A DNA stretch of 64,000 nucleotides from an uncultured Desulfuromonadaceae bacterium. GTDB lineage: Bacteria > Desulfobacterota > Desulfuromonadia > Geobacterales > Pseudopelobacteraceae. How positions within the stretch are numbered: the first letter of the stretch is position 1; every line of letters starts with the position of its first letter. The translations under genes and the position numbers were made by a program. Under the pieces are notes generated by a model. It ran no database searches. It saw only the letters and a program-made list of their open reading frames with translations, and was not told the origin of the DNA. The stretch covers positions 13,575 through 77,574 of the forward strand of contig CAXYUZ010000011.1 of NCBI GenBank assembly GCA_964292275.1. The letters are read 5' to 3'. Positions 13,505 to 39,078 of this stretch are shown piece after piece.

Positions 13505-14332
13505 TTATTTTTTATAGGTAAAGCCGCCTGGAAAATGAACTGTCTTGAATTTGTCATTTACACCATGCAGAGACTCGGATTGGCCGACAAAGAAATATCC
13601 ATAGGGCTGAAGATTGTTATAAAAATGTTGTACAACTTTGGATTTTGATGCGGTATCAAAATAGATCAGAACATTTGCACAAAAGATAATGTCAAATGTC
13701 TTCATAAAGATCATCTTGTTATCATCGTAAAGGTTCAGCTTGTTAAATGTGACAAACTTTTTGACCTCTGGAGACAGGATGAATTTACCATTGTCCTCAC
13801 GAATATACTTACGCTTATAGACATCCGGTATGTTGCGAACGGAGTAGGCGTTATAAACCCCTTCCTTTGCCTGTGCCACAACCGTCTCGTTGATATCCGT
13901 ACCAACAATTTCTATGATCCAATCCTTGAGAAGCGTAGCCCTCTTTTCCTGCAGGATCATCGCCATGGTATAGGCCTCTTCACCAGACGACGAGGCAGCA
14001 CTCCAGATCCTTAATTTTTTAAAACCCATTTTGCTTTTTATATCAACGATCTCGGGTAGAATACGATTTTCAAGTGCATTCAACTGTGGAACATTTCTGA
14101 AGAAATAGGTTTCATTGGTCGTAATTTCATCCATCAGATACTTCAGCTCATCACTACCACGTGAAGACTTGAGAAGCTGATAATAATCCAGATGTGTCTT
14201 GGTGCCGGTTGCATCCATTCTGCGTGAAAGCCGGCTTTCAAGAAAATATTTTTTGGTTGTATGAAAATACATACCACATATATTATAGATAAAATCACGT
14301 AACAGTTCAAAATCCTTGTCTGATATCGCCAC
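13505..14332 (-). CDS. cheR: Chemotaxis protein methyltransferase CheR
   Basis: 275 aa. SAM-dependent MTase fold with a CheR N-terminal domain. Sits between cheA and cheB. Confidence 0.85.
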   Translation of the reverse strand: MAISDKDFELLRDFIYNICGMYFHTTKKYFLESRLSRRMDATGTKTHLDYYQLLKSSRGSDELKYLMDEITTNETYFFRNVPQLNALENRILPEIVDIKSKMGFKKLRIWSAASSSGEEAYTMAMILQEKRATLLKDWIIEIVGTDINETVVAQAKEGVYNAYSVRNIPDVYKRKYIREDNGKFILSPEVKKFVTFNKLNLYDDNKMIFMKTFDIIFCANVLIYFDTASKSKVVQHFYNNLQPYGYFFVGQSESLHGVNDKFKTVHFPGGFTYKK

Positions 14333-30614: not shown

Positions 30615-30700
30615 TAATATCGTGACATAGATTTTAAATGATGCGTTACGAGGCCTTGCCGCTAACACACCATTTAAAATCTGAGACTCCTGCAAAATAA

Positions 30701-30790
30701 TTGTCATCCCCGAGTGCCGTTATCAGGGATCCAGACTTTTCAGGCAATCAGAATCTGGATTCCCGATCAAAACCGCTTCGGGAATGATAA
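30701..30790. repeat. Palindromic copy of MITE-like repeat family (module + inverted module)
   Basis: ttgtcatccccgagtgccgttatcagggatccagact ... agaatctggattcccgatcaaaaccgcttcgggaatgataa. The arms are inverse complements and each resembles the 38024-38060 module. Confidence 0.6.
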
Positions 30791-30863
30791 TTTTGAACTT
30801 TTACAAGAAACTTGCTCAATATTTTTTACTATCACATCAACAGTAACCACAGGAGATCAAACC

Positions 30864-33137
30864 ATGGGCTTTATCATCAGTCACTACCAGCTATTAATCG
30901 GGCTGGTTCTGCTTATCATCCTGCTCTGGAACTCGATAGTCATTGTCGGCGGCAATGAGATTGCGGTTCTGGAACGCAAGTACTTCGGGGCCAAGATGCC
31001 GCAGGGGCGGGTTGTCGCCATGTCCAGCGAGATCGGCGTCCAGGCGCGTACCCTCGGCCCTGGCCTGCATCTGCTGATTCCGTTCCTCTACACGACTAAA
31101 AAACAGCTCTTCACCAACATTGCCGAAAATGAGATCGGTATGCTCGAATCCATTGACGGCGATCCCGTACCGGCGGGCAAGATCTTTGCCAAGGTGGTCG
31201 AAGGGCACAACGCCTTCCAGGACGGCGAAGCCTTCCTGCACAACGGCGGTGAAAAGGGGCCGCAGATCCAGATCCTTCCACCGGGTTGCTATCGTATCAA
31301 CCCGGCCCTGTTCCGGATCAAGAAGCTTCCCGCAGTGACCGTTGAAGAAAACGAGGTTGCCCTGATTTCCTCCGTGGACGGTAGCCCGATACCTCCCGGC
31401 AAGATTTTTGCCAAGGTGGTCGAAGGGCACAACGCCTTCCAGAACGGTGAGGCATTTCTACAGAATGGCGGTGAAAAAGGGCCACAGATTGAACTGCTCC
31501 CCCCCGGCACCTACCGGATCAACCTCGATCTGTTCACCGTCCGCAAGGTTCCGGTAGTCATCATCGACAAAGGTCAAATTGGCGTTGTAACCTCCATGGA
31601 CGGGGAACAGATCCCGGCTGGACGGCTTCTGGGACGTCAGGTTCCAAAACATTCCAACTTTGAAAACGGCCAGGCCTTCCTGCACAACGGCGGTCAGAAG
31701 GGGCCGCAAATTGACATACTGCTTCCCGGTACATACCGTATCAATACCGATCTGTTCCATGTCGAGATCAAGGATGCCACTGTCATCCCGGCCAACAAGG
31801 TCGGTCTGGTAACCGCACTGGACGGTGAACCGCTCCCCGAGGCCGAATATGTCGCCAAACCGGTCACCGGCCATACAGATTATCAGGATGCATCCAAATT
31901 TCTGACTGCCGGGGGGCAGCGCGGCCCGCAGTTTGATGTACTCAAACCGGGCACCTATTACATCAACCCGCTGACCTTCAAGGTCGAACTGGATGACGTG
32001 GCAATAGTCGAACGCGGTCAGGTAGCCGTTGTCGTCTCCAACGTGGGTGAGGAACCGCCTGAGATTAAAAACGCTGTGGAGAGCACCGACAGTGAATCCC
32101 TGCAGGGAGTGGACGAACGGGTAAATCTGGGGATTGAGCGCTATGTCGTACCAAAGGGATTCCGCGGTATCCAGCAGGAGGTGGCCGGCCCCGGTTTCTA
32201 CTACCTCAACCGCCGCGCCTACATCGCCTATGTGGTTGACACAACCAACATCAGCGTTGACTGGGACGACGGTGCAGAAACCCGTTTCAACCCGCTCAAG
32301 GTCGTCTCCCGCGACGGCTTTGAAATCAACGTATCGGTCAAGGTTGTTATCCGTGTCCGTCCGGATCAGGCACCATATATGGTCTCCAAGATCGGTTCCA
32401 CCGAGAATCTGATCCAGCATGTCATCCACCCGATGATCGACTCCAGCTTCCGCAACCAGGCATCATCCACCTCGGCGATGAACTTCATGCAGGATCGCCA
32501 GGAGGAACAGCGCAAGGCAGAGGAACGCGCCCGCAAGGAACTGGAAAAATACCATGTGGAATGCGTCTCCGTACTGATCTGCCAGATCATGCTGCCGCAG
32601 GATCTGATGGACACCCAGACCCGCAAGATCATTGCCCAGCAGCAACAGGCCATGTACCAGGATCAGCAGAAGGCCGAGCAGACCCGTATCGCCACCGAAA
32701 AAACACGGGCCGAGGCCGACCAGCAGAAAAATCTGGTAGAGGCGGAGATCGGCGTCAAGATTGCCGAACAGAACAAGGAGAAGGCGATCCGCTTCGCCGA
32801 GGGTGATGCCGAGGGGATCCGCCTCAAGGCAGAGGGTGAGGCCAAGGGTATCAAGGCACGCGGTGAGGCAGAGGGGGCAAAAATTCTCGCCATGGGTGAG
32901 GCGACTGCCAAGGCCTACGAACTGCAAAACCGCGCCGTCGGCCAGCAGGGTGTTACCGCCATCGAAATCGCCAAGCAGATTGCCAGCGGCAACATCAAGG
33001 TCACACCGGACTTTCTGGTTCAGGGGGGTGAAAACATGGGAGGGCTACTGTCGGCATTCCTGACCCAGATCATTGCCGGCAAACAGGCGGCTGCGACCGT
33101 CCAGAACAGTGATCAAACGGAAGTAAAAACGATCTGA
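30864..33137 (+). CDS. Flotillin-like (SPFH/band-7 + flotillin C-terminal coiled-coil) membrane protein with ~5 tandem N-terminal repeats
   Basis: Start at ATG 30864 after AGGAGA; the track start 30714 lacks an RBS. N-terminal TM segment. About five tandem repeats of roughly 75 aa of type (D/N)G.P.P.GKIFAKVVEGHNAFQ.GEAFL.NGGEKGPQI..LPPGTYRIN, then SPFH and an Ala/Glu/Lys-rich coiled coil (EAEGAKILAMGEA). Confidence 0.75.
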   Translation: MGFIISHYQLLIGLVLLIILLWNSIVIVGGNEIAVLERKYFGAKMPQGRVVAMSSEIGVQARTLGPGLHLLIPFLYTTKKQLFTNIAENEIGMLESIDGDPVPAGKIFAKVVEGHNAFQDGEAFLHNGGEKGPQIQILPPGCYRINPALFRIKKLPAVTVEENEVALISSVDGSPIPPGKIFAKVVEGHNAFQNGEAFLQNGGEKGPQIELLPPGTYRINLDLFTVRKVPVVIIDKGQIGVVTSMDGEQIPAGRLLGRQVPKHSNFENGQAFLHNGGQKGPQIDILLPGTYRINTDLFHVEIKDATVIPANKVGLVTALDGEPLPEAEYVAKPVTGHTDYQDASKFLTAGGQRGPQFDVLKPGTYYINPLTFKVELDDVAIVERGQVAVVVSNVGEEPPEIKNAVESTDSESLQGVDERVNLGIERYVVPKGFRGIQQEVAGPGFYYLNRRAYIAYVVDTTNISVDWDDGAETRFNPLKVVSRDGFEINVSVKVVIRVRPDQAPYMVSKIGSTENLIQHVIHPMIDSSFRNQASSTSAMNFMQDRQEEQRKAEERARKELEKYHVECVSVLICQIMLPQDLMDTQTRKIIAQQQQAMYQDQQKAEQTRIATEKTRAEADQQKNLVEAEIGVKIAEQNKEKAIRFAEGDAEGIRLKAEGEAKGIKARGEAEGAKILAMGEATAKAYELQNRAVGQQGVTAIEIAKQIASGNIKVTPDFLVQGGENMGGLLSAFLTQIIAGKQAAATVQNSDQTEVKTI

Positions 33138-33146
33138 CCGGATCGC

Positions 33147-35387
33147 CTATGACGGCAGGGTTGTTGAGTCCTTGGGAGGGTTCTGACAGGAAACCTTGCC
33201 GCCACAGGCGGCCGGCCGATCCGGCATGAAACGGCAGAAGAGCAGATCGCTGCTGTTGCAGGAGATTGCGTCACCACTCCCCCTGAAACAACAGACTCGA
33301 TCAATGTCACGCATGACAGCTGCATGACGTGGATGTGTACTCAAGAACAGCTCGGTCAGTTTATCCACCGGCATAGGCCTGGCATAGTAGTACCCCTGCA
33401 CCTCATAACAGTCATGGGCAAGCAGATAGGCCTCCTGCTCGGCATATTCAATCCCTTCGGCAACCACCTCCAGATGCAGACTGCGGGCCATGCTGATAAT
33501 TGCCGCCAGCAGCTGGTTATCCTCCTCATCCTCATGGACATGCTGCAGAAAGGAGCGGTCGATCTTGAGCACATTGACCGGCAGATGCCGCAGCTGACTG
33601 AGCGAAGAATAACCGGTACCAAAGTCATCAATACTGATCTGAACTCCCAGCCGTTGCAACTCCCTCAAGTAGCCGACCGAATGTTCAAAGTTCTCCATCA
33701 GGGCCCCCTCCGTAATCTCCAGTTCGAGCGCCTGCACACAGAGCCTGTTCTCAACGATTGACTCCTTGACAATCTCGATCAGATTCTGGCGTTGCAGCTG
33801 CAACGGCGAGACATTAACGGAGAGACGGGGGAGATAAACCCCCTGGAGGTGCCACTTCTGAAGCTGATGGCATGCCTCGCGGATCACCCATTCACCAATG
33901 GCCAGAATCTGGCCGGTACTCTCGGCCAGCGGAATGAATTTATCGGGGGGGATCAGTCCCAACACGGGATGATTCCAGCGGATCAGCGCCTCCGCGCCGG
34001 CCCAGCATTTCTTCTGCAGGTTGATCCGCGGCTGGTAATACAGTTCAAGCTCGCCCTGCTCCAGCGCCCTGTGCAGGTCATTCCCCAGGCCAAGCCGCTC
34101 GGAAACCTTCAGGTGAAGCGCGCTGGAAAAAAGTTCCACATTATTTTTGCCCTTCTCCTTGGCCAGATACATGGCCGTATCGGCGCACTTGACGAGCAGA
34201 TCAACCGTTGTCCCATGTTCAGGATAGAGCGCTACCCCGATACTGGCCGACACAAACAGGCTGTTGTCCAGAATTATATATGGCTCAAAGAGACTCTTGA
34301 TGTGCTTTCTGGCAACCATCTGGGCATTTTTAAAACTCTTCACATTTTGCAGAAAGATGATGAACTCATCCCCCCCCAGACGCGCCAGGGTATCATCGGC
34401 ACGGGTCAATCGCGACAATCGCTGCGCAGTTTCCTGGAGCAGGATATCACCGACCTTGTGACCATGGGTGTCGTTAATCAATTTGAAATCATCCAGATCA
34501 ATGAACAGAATCGCCAAAACCTCGCCTGCACGCTCGGCACGCTGGATCGCCTTTTCCAGGCGGTCATTGAAGAGCGTTCTGTTAGGCAGTTTGGTCAACG
34601 AATCAAAATTCGCCATCTCGTGCAACTGGGCCTGACGCTTCAGCAGGGCATCATCACGCTGGGAGATTTCGGAAAGCATTTCATTGAAACTATCCGATAG
34701 CTGATCAATCTCCTCCGTATCACTATGGGCAACCCGCTTGGAAAAGTCCTTGTTCAGACTGACGTCACGCATCGCTTTTGCAATGTCAATCAGCGGCTCC
34801 GTAACAACCCGCTGGAACCGTTCGGCCAGGAAATAGCTGATGGCCAGTGAAAAAAGCATGATGATCACACCGATCCCGGCACTGACCATGATTTTATCGG
34901 CGATAACCCGGCTATCCTGCTCGACAAGTGTTGTGCCGACACGACTCCCGTCCCTGTAAATAGGGCGTTCGACAACAATGGCCAGATTCCAGATACTGGC
35001 GCCGACCTTCTTGCGCAACAGCTCCAGTTGGATGTTATTATCCTCTGGCTGCAAAAAGGCGGTGTCCTGGCTGTAACGCGCACTGATCCGTCCCTGTTCA
35101 TTCAAGACAAAAAACTGTTTTATGGATGGATCGGCCCTGAGTGAAACCAATGAACGCGCAATGGCCTGATCATCACCAAAGGTCAGCGCAGCGCCAACAT
35201 CGATGGCGACAATATCACTCAACGATACCAGCCGGTTGACACTTTCACGATTAAAGGAAATGTAGTTATGCACCAGAAAGCAGACAAAGGAGGCCATCAA
35301 CACAACCAGACAGGCCAGCATAATGACAAGCCGCTGCTTGTTGCGAAAACTGCCGACAGAATGGAAGAAACTTTCGAAGCGCTGCAT
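33147..35387 (-). CDS. YfiN/TpbB-like membrane sensor with periplasmic domain, HAMP, GGDEF (RLGGDEF) and EAL (EALIRW) domains
   Basis: Two TM segments flank a periplasmic domain of about 140 aa. Both GGDEF and EAL signature motifs are intact. About 60 aa of C-terminal tail after the EAL domain is low-complexity. Confidence 0.8.
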   Translation of the reverse strand: MQRFESFFHSVGSFRNKQRLVIMLACLVVLMASFVCFLVHNYISFNRESVNRLVSLSDIVAIDVGAALTFGDDQAIARSLVSLRADPSIKQFFVLNEQGRISARYSQDTAFLQPEDNNIQLELLRKKVGASIWNLAIVVERPIYRDGSRVGTTLVEQDSRVIADKIMVSAGIGVIIMLFSLAISYFLAERFQRVVTEPLIDIAKAMRDVSLNKDFSKRVAHSDTEEIDQLSDSFNEMLSEISQRDDALLKRQAQLHEMANFDSLTKLPNRTLFNDRLEKAIQRAERAGEVLAILFIDLDDFKLINDTHGHKVGDILLQETAQRLSRLTRADDTLARLGGDEFIIFLQNVKSFKNAQMVARKHIKSLFEPYIILDNSLFVSASIGVALYPEHGTTVDLLVKCADTAMYLAKEKGKNNVELFSSALHLKVSERLGLGNDLHRALEQGELELYYQPRINLQKKCWAGAEALIRWNHPVLGLIPPDKFIPLAESTGQILAIGEWVIREACHQLQKWHLQGVYLPRLSVNVSPLQLQRQNLIEIVKESIVENRLCVQALELEITEGALMENFEHSVGYLRELQRLGVQISIDDFGTGYSSLSQLRHLPVNVLKIDRSFLQHVHEDEEDNQLLAAIISMARSLHLEVVAEGIEYAEQEAYLLAHDCYEVQGYYYARPMPVDKLTELFLSTHPRHAAVMRDIDRVCCFRGSGDAISCNSSDLLFCRFMPDRPAACGGKVSCQNPPKDSTTLPS

Positions 35388-35391
35388 CGTG

Positions 35392-35916
35392 TCAGTTCCT
35401 GATGTCGTTAGCCAGCTTTAGCAGTTGGGTACCAAATGAGATCGCTGCCTTGCGGGCAGCCCCCTGGTTGAGATCAAAGGTAATCCGGTTATTTAAGGTT
35501 ACCAGCTGGACCATCCCCCCCTGACGGCTGAAATCGCGCATATCACTGATGGTCAGAATTCCGCGCCGGTTGGCCTCTGCCAGCAGAGAGGCAAGCCGGT
35601 AACGCTCGGACGATGCAATGAACAGGACCTGGCAGCAGCCAAGCTGATCAAGACTCCTGATCCGGCGAACCTCCAATGGCCGCCCCTTGATAATTTTACC
35701 CCGGCTGGTTTCCAGAACCTCATCCAGCGGTGTATTACCGATCAACCCGATTACAAAGGTTGAACAACGCCCCGCTGACGCAGGATAGGTCACAAAGATC
35801 GGCATATTCAGCAGATAGTTGGCCTTGACGCGGTATTCCTGCGGAAAGTCAGCGGCAGCCATTGCTGAACAGGTAAACAGACTGAAGAACAATATGAGCA
35901 GGAGACGTTTGATCAT
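35392..35916 (-). CDS. yfiR: YfiR family periplasmic protein (DUF4154)
   Basis: Signal peptide and YfiR-like sequence (FPQEYRVKANYLLNMPIFVTYP...). Immediately upstream of the GGDEF-EAL gene. Confidence 0.7.
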   Translation of the reverse strand: MIKRLLLILFFSLFTCSAMAAADFPQEYRVKANYLLNMPIFVTYPASAGRCSTFVIGLIGNTPLDEVLETSRGKIIKGRPLEVRRIRSLDQLGCCQVLFIASSERYRLASLLAEANRRGILTISDMRDFSRQGGMVQLVTLNNRITFDLNQGAARKAAISFGTQLLKLANDIRN

Positions 35917-35918
35917 GT

Positions 35919-37931
35919 TCAGAACCGCCAGGTTGCCTTGACTCGAAAACTGATCCCGTCCTGCGCAATTTCACGCAATGCCTCACCGCGGCTGTTATAC
36001 TGTTCAGAACCGGCCGGATGAGAGTAACGGGAATCAAACAGGTTATAGACCGAGGCAGATAGATCCAGATTTTCGATGATATCGCGGCTTAACAGCGTCA
36101 GATTAAAGATAACGCCCCCGGCGATCCGCTCACCAAGACTGTTCAGCCGGGCACTGTTGTAAACCCCCTCCAGGGTTGCAAAACTTTTCCTGAGCGGAAG
36201 GGGCGCCGTCAATGACGCCTTGGCGATATGGCGGGGTGAGTTGGTCACGAAACGTGCTGAATTAGTATTTCTTACATCCTGATAGGTATAATTGATCCGG
36301 CTGATAAAACCGTTTTCCCAGCGCCCCTCGGCATAGAGTTCCGCCCCCTTGGCCTCAACCTGGCTCTGATTCTCGTAAACCAGAAGGCCGTTTGCATCAG
36401 TGACCTGTTCGATCAGATCGCTGATTCGGGTATAAAATCCGTTGATACCAGCCTTGTAATTTTCACCGATATACTGGTCCACCCCTAGCTCGACCGTACG
36501 AATCTTTTCCGGCTTAAGATCCGGATTGCCGCGGGAACTGATCTGATCACCATAATAGAGCTCATAGGCATTGGGTGCCCGGAACGCCTCACCATAGGAG
36601 AGACGCAGCACCGTTGTCAGGGACGGTTTCCAGATCAGGGCCGCACGCGGGTTAACGGTTGAACCGAAGTTGTCGTAATGATCCCAGCGCAAACCGGCAT
36701 TCAGTATCAGATTGTCAAGAATATGGTATTCGTCCTGCAGGTAATACCCCTGTACAAAGAGGCGGCGATTGCTGTCAAGGTAACTGTTGTATTGCGGCAG
36801 AACATCAAAATTCCGCTGCTGCTGACTGAACTGCCAGCGATGTTCCATACCGCCGGTCAACTGATGGGAACCAAGCGACTTGACAAGAAAGATGTCACTG
36901 CCGATCCAGTCCGCCAGCGTCGTATCACGATTAACCGTTCTTATCTGTGTAAGCTCATCCAGGCGGGGATAATCACCATCGAACTCATAATGGTTATAGG
37001 TCAGACGCGCGTTGATATCTGCAAACCCGGCATGGTGATTGTAGTTGATACCGGCCAGCGTATGACGGTCACTGATCTTGGCAGAAGGATCATTTGATGT
37101 CGTTCCATAGGATGCGGTGGGATTATCCTTGTCCCTGGTCTGGTGCAGCACCAGCATGGAGAAGTCCTTCCAGCTCCCCTTGGCCAGCAGATCCCAGGAG
37201 TTTTCACCATCCATCCCCCTGGAAATTCCGCCATTTGTCGCCGCATATTCCGGGAACCAGAGCTTCTGTATCCCGGCAATATCGCGATAGCTGCCGGAGA
37301 TCATAAAATCGGCGCCATTATCAAACTTGCTGCCACCGCTAACGCGCCCGGTCCATGCATTAAAGCTGCCGCCAGAGGCGGAGATTTCCCCCCCGGAAAG
37401 ACTGTTGCCATCACGGGTAATGACATTGATAACCGCCAGAAAGGCATTGGTGCCATAGAGCGACGAACCGGGACCACGGATAACCTCTATTCGCTCGATC
37501 AAGTCCATATCAACCGGGAAGTCGCTCCCCAGCGGGGCCTGTTCATATACCGCGTCATTCAGACGATAACCGTCAACCAGCAGCAGGATCCGGGTATTGT
37601 AATCACCCAGCGGACTGAAACCGCGCAGGCCAACATAGTGATAGCTGCGGTCGTAGGTCGTATAGAAACCACGTACCCGGTTCAGCGCCTCGGCAAGATT
37701 GCGATAACCGCTATTACGGATATCATCGCGGGTAATAATTGAAATCGATGCCGGGGCATCAACCAACTCCTGCTGATACTTGCTGGCGCCGGTAACCGTG
37801 GTCACCTCGGTATTAAGCAGTGATTCCAGCGCATTGGGTGAATTTTCAAGCGCAGCGACGATTTCACCGGCAAAGGTAAAAGGCGAGTTCAGGAGGAGAA
37901 ATAATACCATCAGTGGGAACGTTATCTTCAT
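35919..37931 (-). CDS. TonB-dependent outer-membrane receptor
   Basis: Signal peptide, a plug domain (DAPASISIITRDDIRNSG), a beta-barrel and a C-terminal aromatic (RF). Its stop lies 2 nt from the yfiR start. Confidence 0.85.
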   Translation of the reverse strand: MKITFPLMVLFLLLNSPFTFAGEIVAALENSPNALESLLNTEVTTVTGASKYQQELVDAPASISIITRDDIRNSGYRNLAEALNRVRGFYTTYDRSYHYVGLRGFSPLGDYNTRILLLVDGYRLNDAVYEQAPLGSDFPVDMDLIERIEVIRGPGSSLYGTNAFLAVINVITRDGNSLSGGEISASGGSFNAWTGRVSGGSKFDNGADFMISGSYRDIAGIQKLWFPEYAATNGGISRGMDGENSWDLLAKGSWKDFSMLVLHQTRDKDNPTASYGTTSNDPSAKISDRHTLAGINYNHHAGFADINARLTYNHYEFDGDYPRLDELTQIRTVNRDTTLADWIGSDIFLVKSLGSHQLTGGMEHRWQFSQQQRNFDVLPQYNSYLDSNRRLFVQGYYLQDEYHILDNLILNAGLRWDHYDNFGSTVNPRAALIWKPSLTTVLRLSYGEAFRAPNAYELYYGDQISSRGNPDLKPEKIRTVELGVDQYIGENYKAGINGFYTRISDLIEQVTDANGLLVYENQSQVEAKGAELYAEGRWENGFISRINYTYQDVRNTNSARFVTNSPRHIAKASLTAPLPLRKSFATLEGVYNSARLNSLGERIAGGVIFNLTLLSRDIIENLDLSASVYNLFDSRYSHPAGSEQYNSRGEALREIAQDGISFRVKATWRF

Positions 37932-37988
37932 ACAAAGCCCTCTTAAAAATGCCGACAGAAATCAGTAATAACGGGCCATCAATACAAA

Positions 37989-38125
37989 GCCTGATTAGCG
38001 TACATCTTCCACTAGTTACCAAAATTGTCATTCCCGAAACGTTTCTGATCGGGAATCCAGACTTTAACTTTCTGAAATTGTAGATCCCCGATAAAAACAT
38101 TCGGGGATTACATTCTGAATAGCGG
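37989..38125 (+). repeat. MITE/REP-like repeat element copy B (two internal hairpins)
   Basis: About 85% identical to 38941-39078. Hairpins ATTCCCGAaacgtttctgaTCGGGAAT and ATCCCCGAtaaaaacatTCGGGGAT. Confidence 0.75.
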
Positions 38126-38192
38126 AAAAATCACGCTCATCAGGATGCGAAATATTACTATTTTTATAACAGACAATTCACCAAAGGCAAGC

Positions 38193-38780
38193 TCAGGGCG
38201 ACTTCTGGCCGAACAGGCCGATCATCATAGCAGTGGGGTCCTGCAGTCCTTCTGGTCGCTTCCCATACCAGCCAGATGTCCATTTCAGGGCACCGGCGGC
38301 ATAGAGTTCAAAATGAAGCTGTTTCGTGCCACTGACCTGACCAATCACATCTCCCGCCGCCAGCCGTTGGGAGGGTTTCAGCAGGGGTTTGCGAAGTTCG
38401 GCGTAATTGGCAACAAAATCACCATGATCCACCAGAACCGCATAGGTCACCTCGCCGTTGCGGCGGATATAAAAACGGGCTATCCGGCGGACAACGCCAT
38501 CCTTGATCGCCCGCACATCCGTACCTGCCCCCCCTGGCGGGTAGAGGTCAACACCGGCATGCCGTCTGCGCCCGCCATTACGCGGCGCACCAAAGAACGG
38601 ATAATCATCCGACCCGCGCGGCCAGTGCCCGCAACCAATCGACGTATCCCTCTCAAAGGGATATCTGGGCCTGCCTTCAAAGGGTGGCGTCAGTGCACCG
38701 GCCCCATCGGCCAGGGCCACCACCGGCAAACAGATCAAAAACAACCATCCAGACAGCAGCAAATTTCGTATCATCTTCAT
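38193..38780 (-). CDS. M23 family (LytM-like) metallopeptidase, secreted
   Basis: Signal peptide. HxxxD (HAGVDL) and HxH-like (LHFELY) motifs. Flanked on both sides by direct copies of the 135-bp repeat. Confidence 0.7.
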   Translation of the reverse strand: MKMIRNLLLSGWLFLICLPVVALADGAGALTPPFEGRPRYPFERDTSIGCGHWPRGSDDYPFFGAPRNGGRRRHAGVDLYPPGGAGTDVRAIKDGVVRRIARFYIRRNGEVTYAVLVDHGDFVANYAELRKPLLKPSQRLAAGDVIGQVSGTKQLHFELYAAGALKWTSGWYGKRPEGLQDPTAMMIGLFGQKSP

Positions 38781-38940
38781 CCAATCACCTCAGGGGGAAG
38801 AATATCAGGCGACAAGCGATTGCGAAATCCATTTTTGAAAGGCTGAACAAGAAAATGAAACGATCAGTTCCGTACTGTCCGTTGAGGTTATCCGTGGAAT
38901 TCACTCCGCAAAACCGTAATCAACCGGGCTAAAAAATATG

Positions 38941-39078
38941 ACCTGATTAGCGTCAATCTTCCGTTAGTTACAAACTTTGTCATTCCCGAAACGATTCTGA
39001 TCGGGAATCCAGTCTTTAACTATTTGAAATCATGGATCCCCGATAAAGACATTCGGGGATGACATTCTTAATAGCAGA
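38941..39078 (+). repeat. MITE/REP-like repeat element copy C
   Basis: Direct-orientation copy of 37989-38125. Confidence 0.75.

Follow-up and report, generated by a model that had tools for sequence, protein, structure and literature searches.

A conserved cassette of a TonB-dependent receptor, a YfiR-like periplasmic protein and a CHASE8 sensor with variable outputs

Overview

We analysed a 64,000-nucleotide stretch of DNA (the window; positions 13,575 to 77,574 of contig CAXYUZ010000011.1, GenBank assembly GCA_964292275.1) from an uncultured Desulfuromonadaceae bacterium. A three-gene locus within it encodes a TonB-dependent receptor (TBDR), a YfiR-like periplasmic protein, and an inner-membrane sensor that carries a periplasmic CHASE8 domain and cytoplasmic GGDEF and EAL domains. 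Judged from sequence comparison, the conserved unit of this system is its input half, consisting of the TBDR, the YfiR-like protein and the CHASE8-HAMP region of the sensor, while the output varies between GGDEF-EAL, GGDEF and histidine kinase domains. We read the locus as an envelope-spanning sensory cassette that operates as a ligand relay, in which a signal imported by the TBDR would be sensed in the periplasm, and we give this reading a probability of roughly 0.5. The cassette is of a widespread, experimentally uncharacterised kind whose architecture has already been catalogued.

Organisation of the locus

The TBDR, YfiR-like and sensor genes are adjacent and co-directional on the minus strand. 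They and their principal domains are as follows.

35919 to 37931, minus strand: TBDR, 670 aa (Pfam Plug, E = 1.4e-21; TonB_dep_Rec_b-barrel, E = 1.2e-50)
37785 to 37808, minus strand: putative TonB box EVTTVTGA, aa 42-49, placed by hand alignment to a CirA segment and by conservation
37440 to 37763, minus strand: plug domain, aa 57-164 (Pfam PF07715)
35922 to 37394, minus strand: beta-barrel, aa 180-670, as assigned by DSSP on the AlphaFold2 (AF2) model
35392 to 35916, minus strand: YfiR-like protein, 174 aa (Pfam PF13689, DUF4154, 'YfiR/HmsC-like', E = 7.2e-36, profile positions 1-142 of 143)
33147 to 35387, minus strand: inner-membrane sensor, 746 aa, with a first transmembrane helix, periplasmic CHASE8, a second transmembrane helix, HAMP, GGDEF and EAL
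34923 to 35243, minus strand: CHASE8, aa 49-155 (Pfam PF17152, E = 9.9e-12)
34662 to 34811, minus strand: HAMP, aa 193-242 (Pfam, E = 5.4e-07), the C-terminal end of which is the output exchange point
34140 to 34613, minus strand: GGDEF, aa 259-416 (Pfam, E = 7.3e-51)
33375 to 34082, minus strand: EAL, aa 436-671 (Pfam, E = 1e-72)

The first-pass annotation of this DNA described three tightly spaced minus-strand genes with gaps of 2 and 4 nt, and the open reading frame coordinates and junction sequences agree with that description. The TBDR and YfiR-like genes meet at TGA-ac-ATG and the YfiR-like and sensor genes at TGA-cacg-ATG. An AGGA ribosome-binding site lies within the 3' end of the middle gene. 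The annotation had also named a full TBDR, a YfiR/DUF4154 protein and a sensor with both GGDEF and EAL, and all three domain calls are right by Pfam, including the DUF4154 match of 35392-35916. The trio is single-copy in the 64-kb window, which contains no second TBDR, DUF4154, GGDEF or EAL gene. Among named genomes, the closest relatives of the contig are Desulfuromonadales and Geobacteraceae metagenome-assembled genomes.

The three genes form a conserved unit

We scanned species-representative genomes with peptide patterns of this DUF4154 subfamily and obtained 37 loci, whose neighbouring genes were classed by phmmer and Pfam. The patterns were taken from the closer of two alignments (A2), the more divergent one (A1) offering no conserved stretch. 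Thirty-three loci have at least 600 nt upstream and are informative for TBDR adjacency. The order TBDR, YfiR-like protein, CHASE8 sensor recurs among them, with a co-directional TBDR gene directly upstream of the YfiR-like gene in 25 of the 33; these include the tandem locus L032 and two weak TBDR matches (L038 and L040). Counting a TBDR in any orientation adds L021, where it is directly downstream, and L024, where it is divergent, and brings the figure to 27/33. In 32 of 36 loci the gene immediately after the YfiR-like one encodes a CHASE8 sensor. The TBDR-linked form is present in Desulfuromonadales, Acidobacteriota, Verrucomicrobiota and Betaproteobacteria, which we count as at least four phyla.

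Three of four distant DUF4154 homologues (26-38% identity), picked by homology alone, have a TBDR in their cluster. In the reverse look-up, TBDR relatives (45-51% identity) were picked by TBDR similarity only, and all four are followed by a DUF4154 gene and a CHASE8 sensor gene. The flanks of these four cassettes, one of them the kinase-type cassette L042 from the cultured Geomesophilobacter sediminis, are unrelated, and the three genes therefore constitute a conserved unit to which this TBDR clade is dedicated. Conservation of the trio in related genomes is accordingly seen both in the canonical order (25/33) and from the TBDR side (4/4). A spacing of exactly 2 nt between the TBDR and YfiR-like genes, as in the window, recurs in 10 of 14 Desulfuromonadales loci and suggests that the two genes are translationally coupled.

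No OmpA/Pal-like gene that could encode YfiB, the outer-membrane lipoprotein of the YfiBNR system, is present in the Pfam-annotated 20 kb around the gene (10 kb on either side), and the OmpA peptidoglycan-binding motif N..LS..RA..V occurs neither in the window nor in 47 loci. A TBDR is thus found where YfiB would be, as had been proposed.

Rearranged versions also occur. Locus L032:2673-8248 has a tandem duplication of the input genes (TBDR-TBDR-YfiR-like-YfiR-like) followed by one kinase, and recalls a two-YfiR system in Thauera (Malone et al. 2012, PMC3375315). In L021:8001-10822 the DUF4154 gene precedes the TBDR gene and the sensor is not adjacent, and in L024:6076-8456 the TBDR is divergently transcribed. 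One of the distant-homologue clusters, L048:5001-10026, has the order DUF4154, kinase, TBDR, with overlapping genes.

A constant input half is joined to different outputs

The Desulfuromonadales loci have a GGDEF-EAL output in 12 cases and a hybrid kinase in L013; L015 has no adjacent sensor. Outside this order most sensors have the architecture CHASE8-HAMP(-PAS/GAF)-HisKA-HATPase, with optional REC and Hpt, and ten sensors are confirmed by Pfam as CHASE8-HAMP histidine kinases. GGDEF-EAL and GGDEF-only outputs are also found, in L036 and L030, respectively.

A change of output can be followed within a single Geobacteraceae metagenome-assembled genome, CAIYZD01, which contains the paralogous cassettes L013:4021-6843 (hybrid kinase with two REC domains and Hpt) and L017:5208-7313 (GGDEF-EAL). 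Their TBDRs and YfiR-like proteins are mutual nearest neighbours, and their sensors share 64.6% identity over aa 1-263 and are unrelated beyond. By this alignment, the difference between the two is an output swap located exactly at the end of the HAMP domain. The same genome contains a third copy of the cassette (L012).

Several kinase-type cassettes are trailed by response regulators with c-di-GMP domains. These are REC-GGDEF proteins at L029:11231-12244, L032:11022-12035 and L022:8967-10211 (the last about 2.4 kb downstream) and a REC-GGDEF-EAL protein at L049:8391-10450. Because of these regulators we regard cyclic di-GMP (c-di-GMP) as a recurring end point, and the kinase versions probably also end in c-di-GMP control. 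The family presents a clean case of domain shuffling, in which one input cassette would drive interchangeable outputs. Since the TBDR accompanies the periplasmic input half irrespective of the output, its conservation indicates that it most likely belongs to the signal input.

The YfiR-like protein is a predicted partner of the CHASE8 domain

The YfiR-like protein has a signal peptide, with cleavage placed after AMA by reading the sequence, and a DUF4154 domain at aa 28-169. The family profile matches PDB YfiR over its full length (E = 3.4e-11). An AF2 model of the window protein has a mean predicted local distance difference test score (pLDDT) of 91.9, and its top 15 Foldseek matches in the PDB are all Pseudomonas aeruginosa YfiR, with template-modelling (TM) scores of 0.73-0.82. 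Strand beta7 is nearly unchanged (RITFDLN, compared with RITFEAN in P. aeruginosa), and the C-terminal LLKLA is invariant. On the side of the sensor, the CHASE8 domain carries GAALTF, the counterpart of the 'AAVVF' motif through which YfiN binds YfiR (Malone et al. 2012, PMC3375315). The motif AAL[ATSIV]F is found in 13 of 14 aligned sensors, the exception being L036 with AGLMF. The two proteins also co-diverge: within Desulfuromonadales, the YfiR-like protein and the N-terminal domain of the sensor give r = 0.81. Because of the YfiR fold, the retention of beta7 and LLKLA, the AALxF motif and the co-divergence, we consider it supported that the YfiR-like protein is the periplasmic partner of the CHASE8 domain and would control the sensor as YfiR controls YfiN.

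The cysteines of P. aeruginosa YfiR are kept unevenly. The Cys145-Cys152 disulfide has no counterpart in the window protein, where the aligned positions are F129 and a second non-cysteine residue, and the pair is found in 0/74 aligned family members at the positions checked. The Cys71-Cys110 pair is kept in 65/74 members; the window protein has lost the Cys71 counterpart (G57), one of four such losses among the 74. Two further cysteines, Cys51 and Cys94, are both present in 20 and both absent in 54 of 74 homologues, a pattern that suggests an additional, lineage-specific disulfide.

The closest structural neighbour of the model other than YfiR is a single-domain substrate-binding protein from Rhodothermus marinus (RmSBP; PDB 5z6v, 6k1x and 8wgl). 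The YfiR fold has been likened to such proteins (PMC4655355), as it is in our Foldseek search, and this contributes a fold resemblance only. The RmSBP gene lies near a gene for a methyl-accepting chemotaxis protein (MCP), and its authors make no mention of YfiR. RmSBP may simply be a YfiR-family protein, since Rhodothermus is listed among the distant YfiR homologues and MCPs among their outputs (Malone et al. 2012, PMC3375315).

The sensor retains the motifs of both c-di-GMP enzymes

By homology, the cytoplasmic GGDEF-EAL pair of the sensor would set c-di-GMP levels. The GGDEF active site and the RxxD inhibitory site (RADD...GGDEF) are intact and conserved in all orthologues. The EAL signature residues are likewise all present (EAL, N, ExxE, DDFGTG, K, EGIE where the family has EGxE, and QG) and are conserved in 12 orthologues. 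With every catalytic motif of both domains kept, the earlier description of the sensor as a dual diguanylate cyclase and phosphodiesterase is a fair reading.

Many tandem GGDEF-EAL proteins are net phosphodiesterases, and the best NCBIfam matches of the GGDEF-EAL region here are phosphodiesterases as well (DibA, 473 bits, and PRK10060, 407 bits, both under their cutoffs). The sensor could therefore be effectively a phosphodiesterase only, its GGDEF domain acting as a regulator that senses GTP or c-di-GMP, and this would be compatible with any model of the input. Purely regulatory GGDEF domains usually show degenerate active sites, however, whereas here both the active and the inhibitory site are intact across the orthologues, and we place this option on the unlikely side.

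The TBDR resembles a working transporter

The TBDR consists of a signal peptide (aa 1-21), a disordered N-terminal segment, a TonB box, a plug, a 22-strand barrel and a C-terminal phenylalanine (...WRF). Its AF2 model (pLDDT 84.5, predicted TM score 0.86) shows the plug, the 22-strand barrel and the disordered N-terminal segment. Plug, full barrel, TonB box and C-terminal aromatic residue together make up a complete transporter. The TonB box, EVTTVTGA, was aligned by hand to what we take to be the corresponding segment of CirA, ETMVVTA.

Conservation was calculated as the mean majority fraction across 45 family members and divided by topology according to the AF2 model. The TonB-box region (aa 42-55) is the best conserved part, at 0.83 with 64% of columns at or above 0.9, followed by the plug at 0.80. 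Barrel strands score 0.66 and extracellular loops 0.64 overall, with loops L2, L3 and L7 reaching 0.71-0.75. The periplasmic turns, which are 2-5 aa each, are the least conserved region at 0.55. An N-terminal signalling (STN) domain gave no match in the TBDRs of the window, L025 or L028, and there are no sigma or anti-sigma genes among the neighbours of the window cassette. Because the TonB box and plug are most conserved, loops L2, L3 and L7 are conserved, the periplasmic turns are least conserved and STN is absent, the TBDR resembles a functional, TonB-energised transporter that is specific for its ligand.

By sequence, the nearest solved structure is CirA (2hdf), with a full-length phmmer match of 123 bits. 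By fold, the nearest are BtuB, YncD, PqqU and Cir, and the BtuB:TonB structure 2gsk is the top structural match. An attempt to derive a ligand from these receptors failed, as CirA, BtuB, YncD and PqqU are all about 20% identical to the TBDR.

How the receptor could be coupled to the sensor

In the ligand relay that we favour, the TBDR would act as an ordinary TonB-energised transporter that brings a specific ligand into the periplasm. There the ligand would act on the complex formed by the YfiR-like protein and CHASE8, altering it and so shifting the balance between c-di-GMP synthesis and breakdown. The same input would drive a histidine kinase in the sister cassettes, often followed by a REC-GGDEF response regulator. 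The logic of such a relay resembles that of PfeA with PfeS/PfeR, or of SusC-like transporters with hybrid two-component sensors, with the addition of a YfiR-type adaptor. In favour of the relay are the transporter-like TBDR, with neither a signalling extension nor a conserved periplasmic rim, and its loose co-divergence within Desulfuromonadales (r = 0.31 with the YfiR-like protein and r = 0.46 with the N-terminal domain of the sensor) beside the tight one of the two inner partners. The likeness of the YfiR fold to a single-domain substrate-binding protein also speaks for it, as does the binding of vitamin B6 and L-Trp by P. aeruginosa YfiR in the pocket used for its partners (PMC4887326).

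Several points weigh against the relay. Structural neighbours at about 20% identity supply no ligand candidate. The small-molecule binding by P. aeruginosa YfiR is very weak, with a Kd of 35-77 mM, and the pocket is only partly retained in the window protein (Q151/A154/F161/T163/L166). Six scanned loci have no TBDR (L020, L023, L026, L035, L039 and L041), as is also the case for P0076, and because about one locus in five is of this type the core can evidently work without one. The peptide patterns used in the scan are those of this subfamily, and the loci are a biased sample of DUF4154. In addition, the contrast in co-divergence between the TBDR and the two inner partners comes from 11 non-independent loci in which the TBDR spans a narrower identity range.

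A more direct coupling, along the lines of the first-pass annotation, is conceivable, in which the TBDR is a functional analogue of YfiB and one of its periplasmic elements captures the YfiR-like protein, releasing the sensor. Ligand binding or TonB engagement would expose this element, most plausibly the Ton-box strand, which would form a beta-strand pairing with the YfiR-like protein. The result would be a form of cell-surface signalling with neither an N-terminal signalling domain nor an anti-sigma factor. The outer-membrane, YfiR-type and YfiN-type proteins do form the same three-layer arrangement as in YfiBNR, and the conserved 2-nt gap ties the TBDR gene to that of the proposed target. 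Ton boxes are known to bind partners by strand pairing, as in BtuB:TonB, and no other part of the TBDR is as conserved as the Ton-box region, although conservation of Ton box and plug is expected in any working TBDR. YfiR pairs with YfiB in antiparallel fashion through beta7, on a surface shared with YfiN binding (PMC4655355), and it is this strand that is near-unchanged in the window protein. The barrel's periplasmic rim, on the other hand, is its least conserved region, and the TBDR lacks STN or any other extension. TBDR and YfiR-like protein co-diverge far less closely than YfiR-like protein and sensor do, and competition from TonB for the same strand would need explaining. We consider direct capture rather doubtful; the indirect evidence leans slightly the other way, and it is not the best-supported option for the role of the TBDR.

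An extension of the capture model, which we put forward only speculatively and regard as unlikely, casts the TBDR as a receptor that itself signals, in what would be a second, widespread type of cell-surface signalling lacking both STN domain and anti-sigma factor. Such receptors would gate CHASE8 sensors through the capture and release of a YfiR-type adaptor, for example by Ton-box pairing with YfiR beta7, with c-di-GMP turnover or phosphorelays as outputs. The YfiB system would then be a lineage-specific derivative of an older, TBDR-coupled module.

It is improbable that the TBDR is no input at all but co-expressed cargo or a regulatory target of a core that senses, for example, redox state or envelope stress, as has been proposed for YfiR. 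In some lineages the YfiR-YfiN core does work with no partner in the outer membrane (Malone et al. 2012, PMC3375315), a TBDR is missing from about a fifth of the loci, the counterpart of the redox-sensitive Cys71-Cys110 pair is widely kept, and gene order differs in L021, L024 and L048. Yet the TBDR stays with the input half through the output swap, is linked to it across at least four phyla and in unrelated flanks, and belongs to a clade that the reverse look-up finds dedicated to the cassette; moreover, none of the cassettes examined in detail has a DNA-binding output able to regulate the TBDR gene.

The TBDR-linked version offers a tractable way into what YfiR-type repressors sense, as identifying the TBDR ligand would provide a candidate signal for YfiR-type systems. 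Should the link prove functional, the outer membrane would supply the input of many c-di-GMP enzymes and histidine kinases across Desulfuromonadales, Acidobacteriota, Verrucomicrobiota and Betaproteobacteria, through a route without prior experimental description.

Leader sequence and neighbouring genes

The surroundings of the cassette in the window contain the following features.

37932 to 38192, minus strand: leader of the TBDR gene, 261 nt, from the M23 peptidase stop to the TBDR start
38193 to 38780, minus strand: small secreted M23 peptidase, 195 aa, 261 nt upstream of the TBDR gene
30714 to 33137, plus strand: SPFH/Band7 gene, whose called GTG start at 30714 falls within a repeat element
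30700 to 30810, plus strand; 37985 to 38125, minus strand; 38935 to 39075, minus strand: three copies of a palindromic repeat of about 110-140 nt

The TBDR leader has a ribosome-binding site, AAGAGGG, 6 nt ahead of the ATG. Searched for a riboswitch or other known RNA as a hint to the ligand, it matches no Rfam family at E ≤ 1, and scans of it for a consensus sigma-70 promoter and an intrinsic terminator gave results at chance level. It holds one copy of the palindromic repeat, which is specific to this genome; this copy folds into a single long, imperfect hairpin (-43.8 kcal/mol, z = -4.1). One copy precedes the SPFH gene, one the TBDR operon and one the M23 peptidase gene, each a short distance upstream and in constant orientation relative to the gene, and the peptidase leader has the same element as that of the TBDR. 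The repeat has no Rfam entry and does not occur in related loci, and for the latter reason we place it outside the conserved cassette. It could be an element resembling miniature inverted-repeat transposable elements or repetitive extragenic palindromes, or a shared operator.

The M23 peptidase gene is not kept beside the cassette in the four TBDR-relative loci with listed neighbour genes. On the other side, the SPFH gene is convergent with the sensor gene, their stops 9 nt apart. As its called GTG lies inside the repeat element, its true start is probably the ATG near 30864 (MGFIISHYQ...). The SPFH/Band7 protein has about four internal repeats of about 70 aa (…GHNAFQxGEAFLxNGGEKGPQI…PPGxYRIN…) ahead of the Band7 domain. 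Further along the same contig, past ABC transporter genes, L001:1534-4213 holds a cluster of an Rce1-like protease, a short RHS-repeat fragment and a 500-aa Fic-domain protein, which might be a toxin or the remnant of a polymorphic toxin.

Comparison with known systems

The closest characterised relative is YfiBNR (TpbB/AwsXRO/HmsCDE) of Pseudomonas, E. coli and Yersinia. Both systems have a periplasmic DUF4154 protein with the YfiR fold, an inner-membrane YfiN-type sensor with CHASE8, HAMP and an active-looking GGDEF domain, interface motifs kept on both partners, and a third, outer-membrane component in the same operon. They differ in that component, which is a 22-strand TBDR in the window and the Pal/OmpA-like lipoprotein YfiB in YfiBNR, and in the EAL domain added to the window sensor. 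The gene order is R, N, B in YfiBNR but outer-membrane gene, R, N in the window. The Cys145-Cys152 disulfide is essential in P. aeruginosa YfiR, which needs it to fold, whereas the window protein lacks it along with the Cys71 counterpart. The YfiR-like protein and the sensor both fall under the NCBIfam equivalog cutoffs, the former with 25.5 bits on the true-YfiR model NF053586 (cutoff 85 bits), the latter with 276 bits on the DgcN/YfiN model NF007423, which matches aa 21-410 and has its cutoff at 325 bits.

YfiR-type modules without YfiB have been described before. Malone et al. (2012, PMC3375315) regarded the YfiR-YfiN[PAS] core as ancient and modular and found it without YfiB in Geobacter, Opitutus and Acidobacteria, with outputs replaced by GGDEF-EAL, kinases, HPT or MCP and with conserved interface residues. 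They found YfiB mostly confined to gamma- and beta-proteobacteria and argued that it was a later acquisition; a TBDR is unmentioned, and the genomic location is called 'highly variable'. The outputs and the conserved interface match those of the window family, in which a TBDR is adjacent in about 80% of loci. In the literature searched, which covered few subscription-journal papers, we found no description of a link between TBDRs and YfiR. The first-pass interpretation thus stands as regards the YfiR/YfiN-type module, the TBDR in the place of YfiB and the dual GGDEF-EAL output, but not as regards replacement and novelty. To say that a TBDR replaced YfiB probably reverses the history, as the TBDR-linked form is present in at least four phyla and YfiB is mostly gamma- and beta-proteobacterial and later acquired (PMC3375315). 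Novelty was overstated in that YfiB-less pairs with GGDEF-EAL and kinase outputs had been reported in 2012 and a trio of models for the three proteins exists in NCBIfam.

These consecutive models, NF053590 ('TOL_0244 family TonB-dependent receptor'), NF053591 ('TOL_0243 family YfiR-like periplasmic protein') and NF053592 ('sensor histidine kinase, YfiR-like protein-associated'; HK_near_YfiR_like), cover all three parts, so curators already know the trio. Both the trio and the window cassette comprise a TBDR and a YfiR-like protein, together with a sensor whose N-terminal region is the same. The window proteins lie under all three cutoffs (145.6 bits against 645, 107.3 against 125, and 148.5 over aa 13-242 against 194, respectively) and are relatives rather than equivalogs. 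These models are nevertheless the top or near-top matches of the window proteins; the YfiR-like protein scores highest on NF053591, far above its score on the true-YfiR model, and its counterpart in the related locus L028 passes the NF053591 cutoff. The sensor output of the trio is a histidine kinase, as in our sister loci, where the window has GGDEF-EAL. TOL_0244 is reported to be induced sevenfold on the n-C28 alkane in Thalassolituus, the only data on it that we found (PMC6304351). A link from the Alcanivorax alkane sensor OmpS to TOL_0244 was set aside, its sole basis being a reported '40.3% similarity'. The P. aeruginosa genes PA3268-PA3271 were also considered as such a cassette, and this proved wrong, PA3270 being the PacTA toxin-antitoxin gene and PA3271 CrbS.

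TBDR-coupled signalling is otherwise represented by systems such as FecA-FecR-FecI and PfeA with PfeS/PfeR. The transducer of the Fec system has an STN domain and is accompanied by genes for an anti-sigma factor and an extracytoplasmic function sigma factor; the window TBDR has no STN domain, and none of those genes is nearby. Compared with FecA and with PfeA and PfeS/PfeR, the window cassette adds a YfiR-type periplasmic adaptor between receptor and sensor. Its predicted output is c-di-GMP turnover, or a phosphorelay in the sister cassettes, rather than the direct control of transcription.

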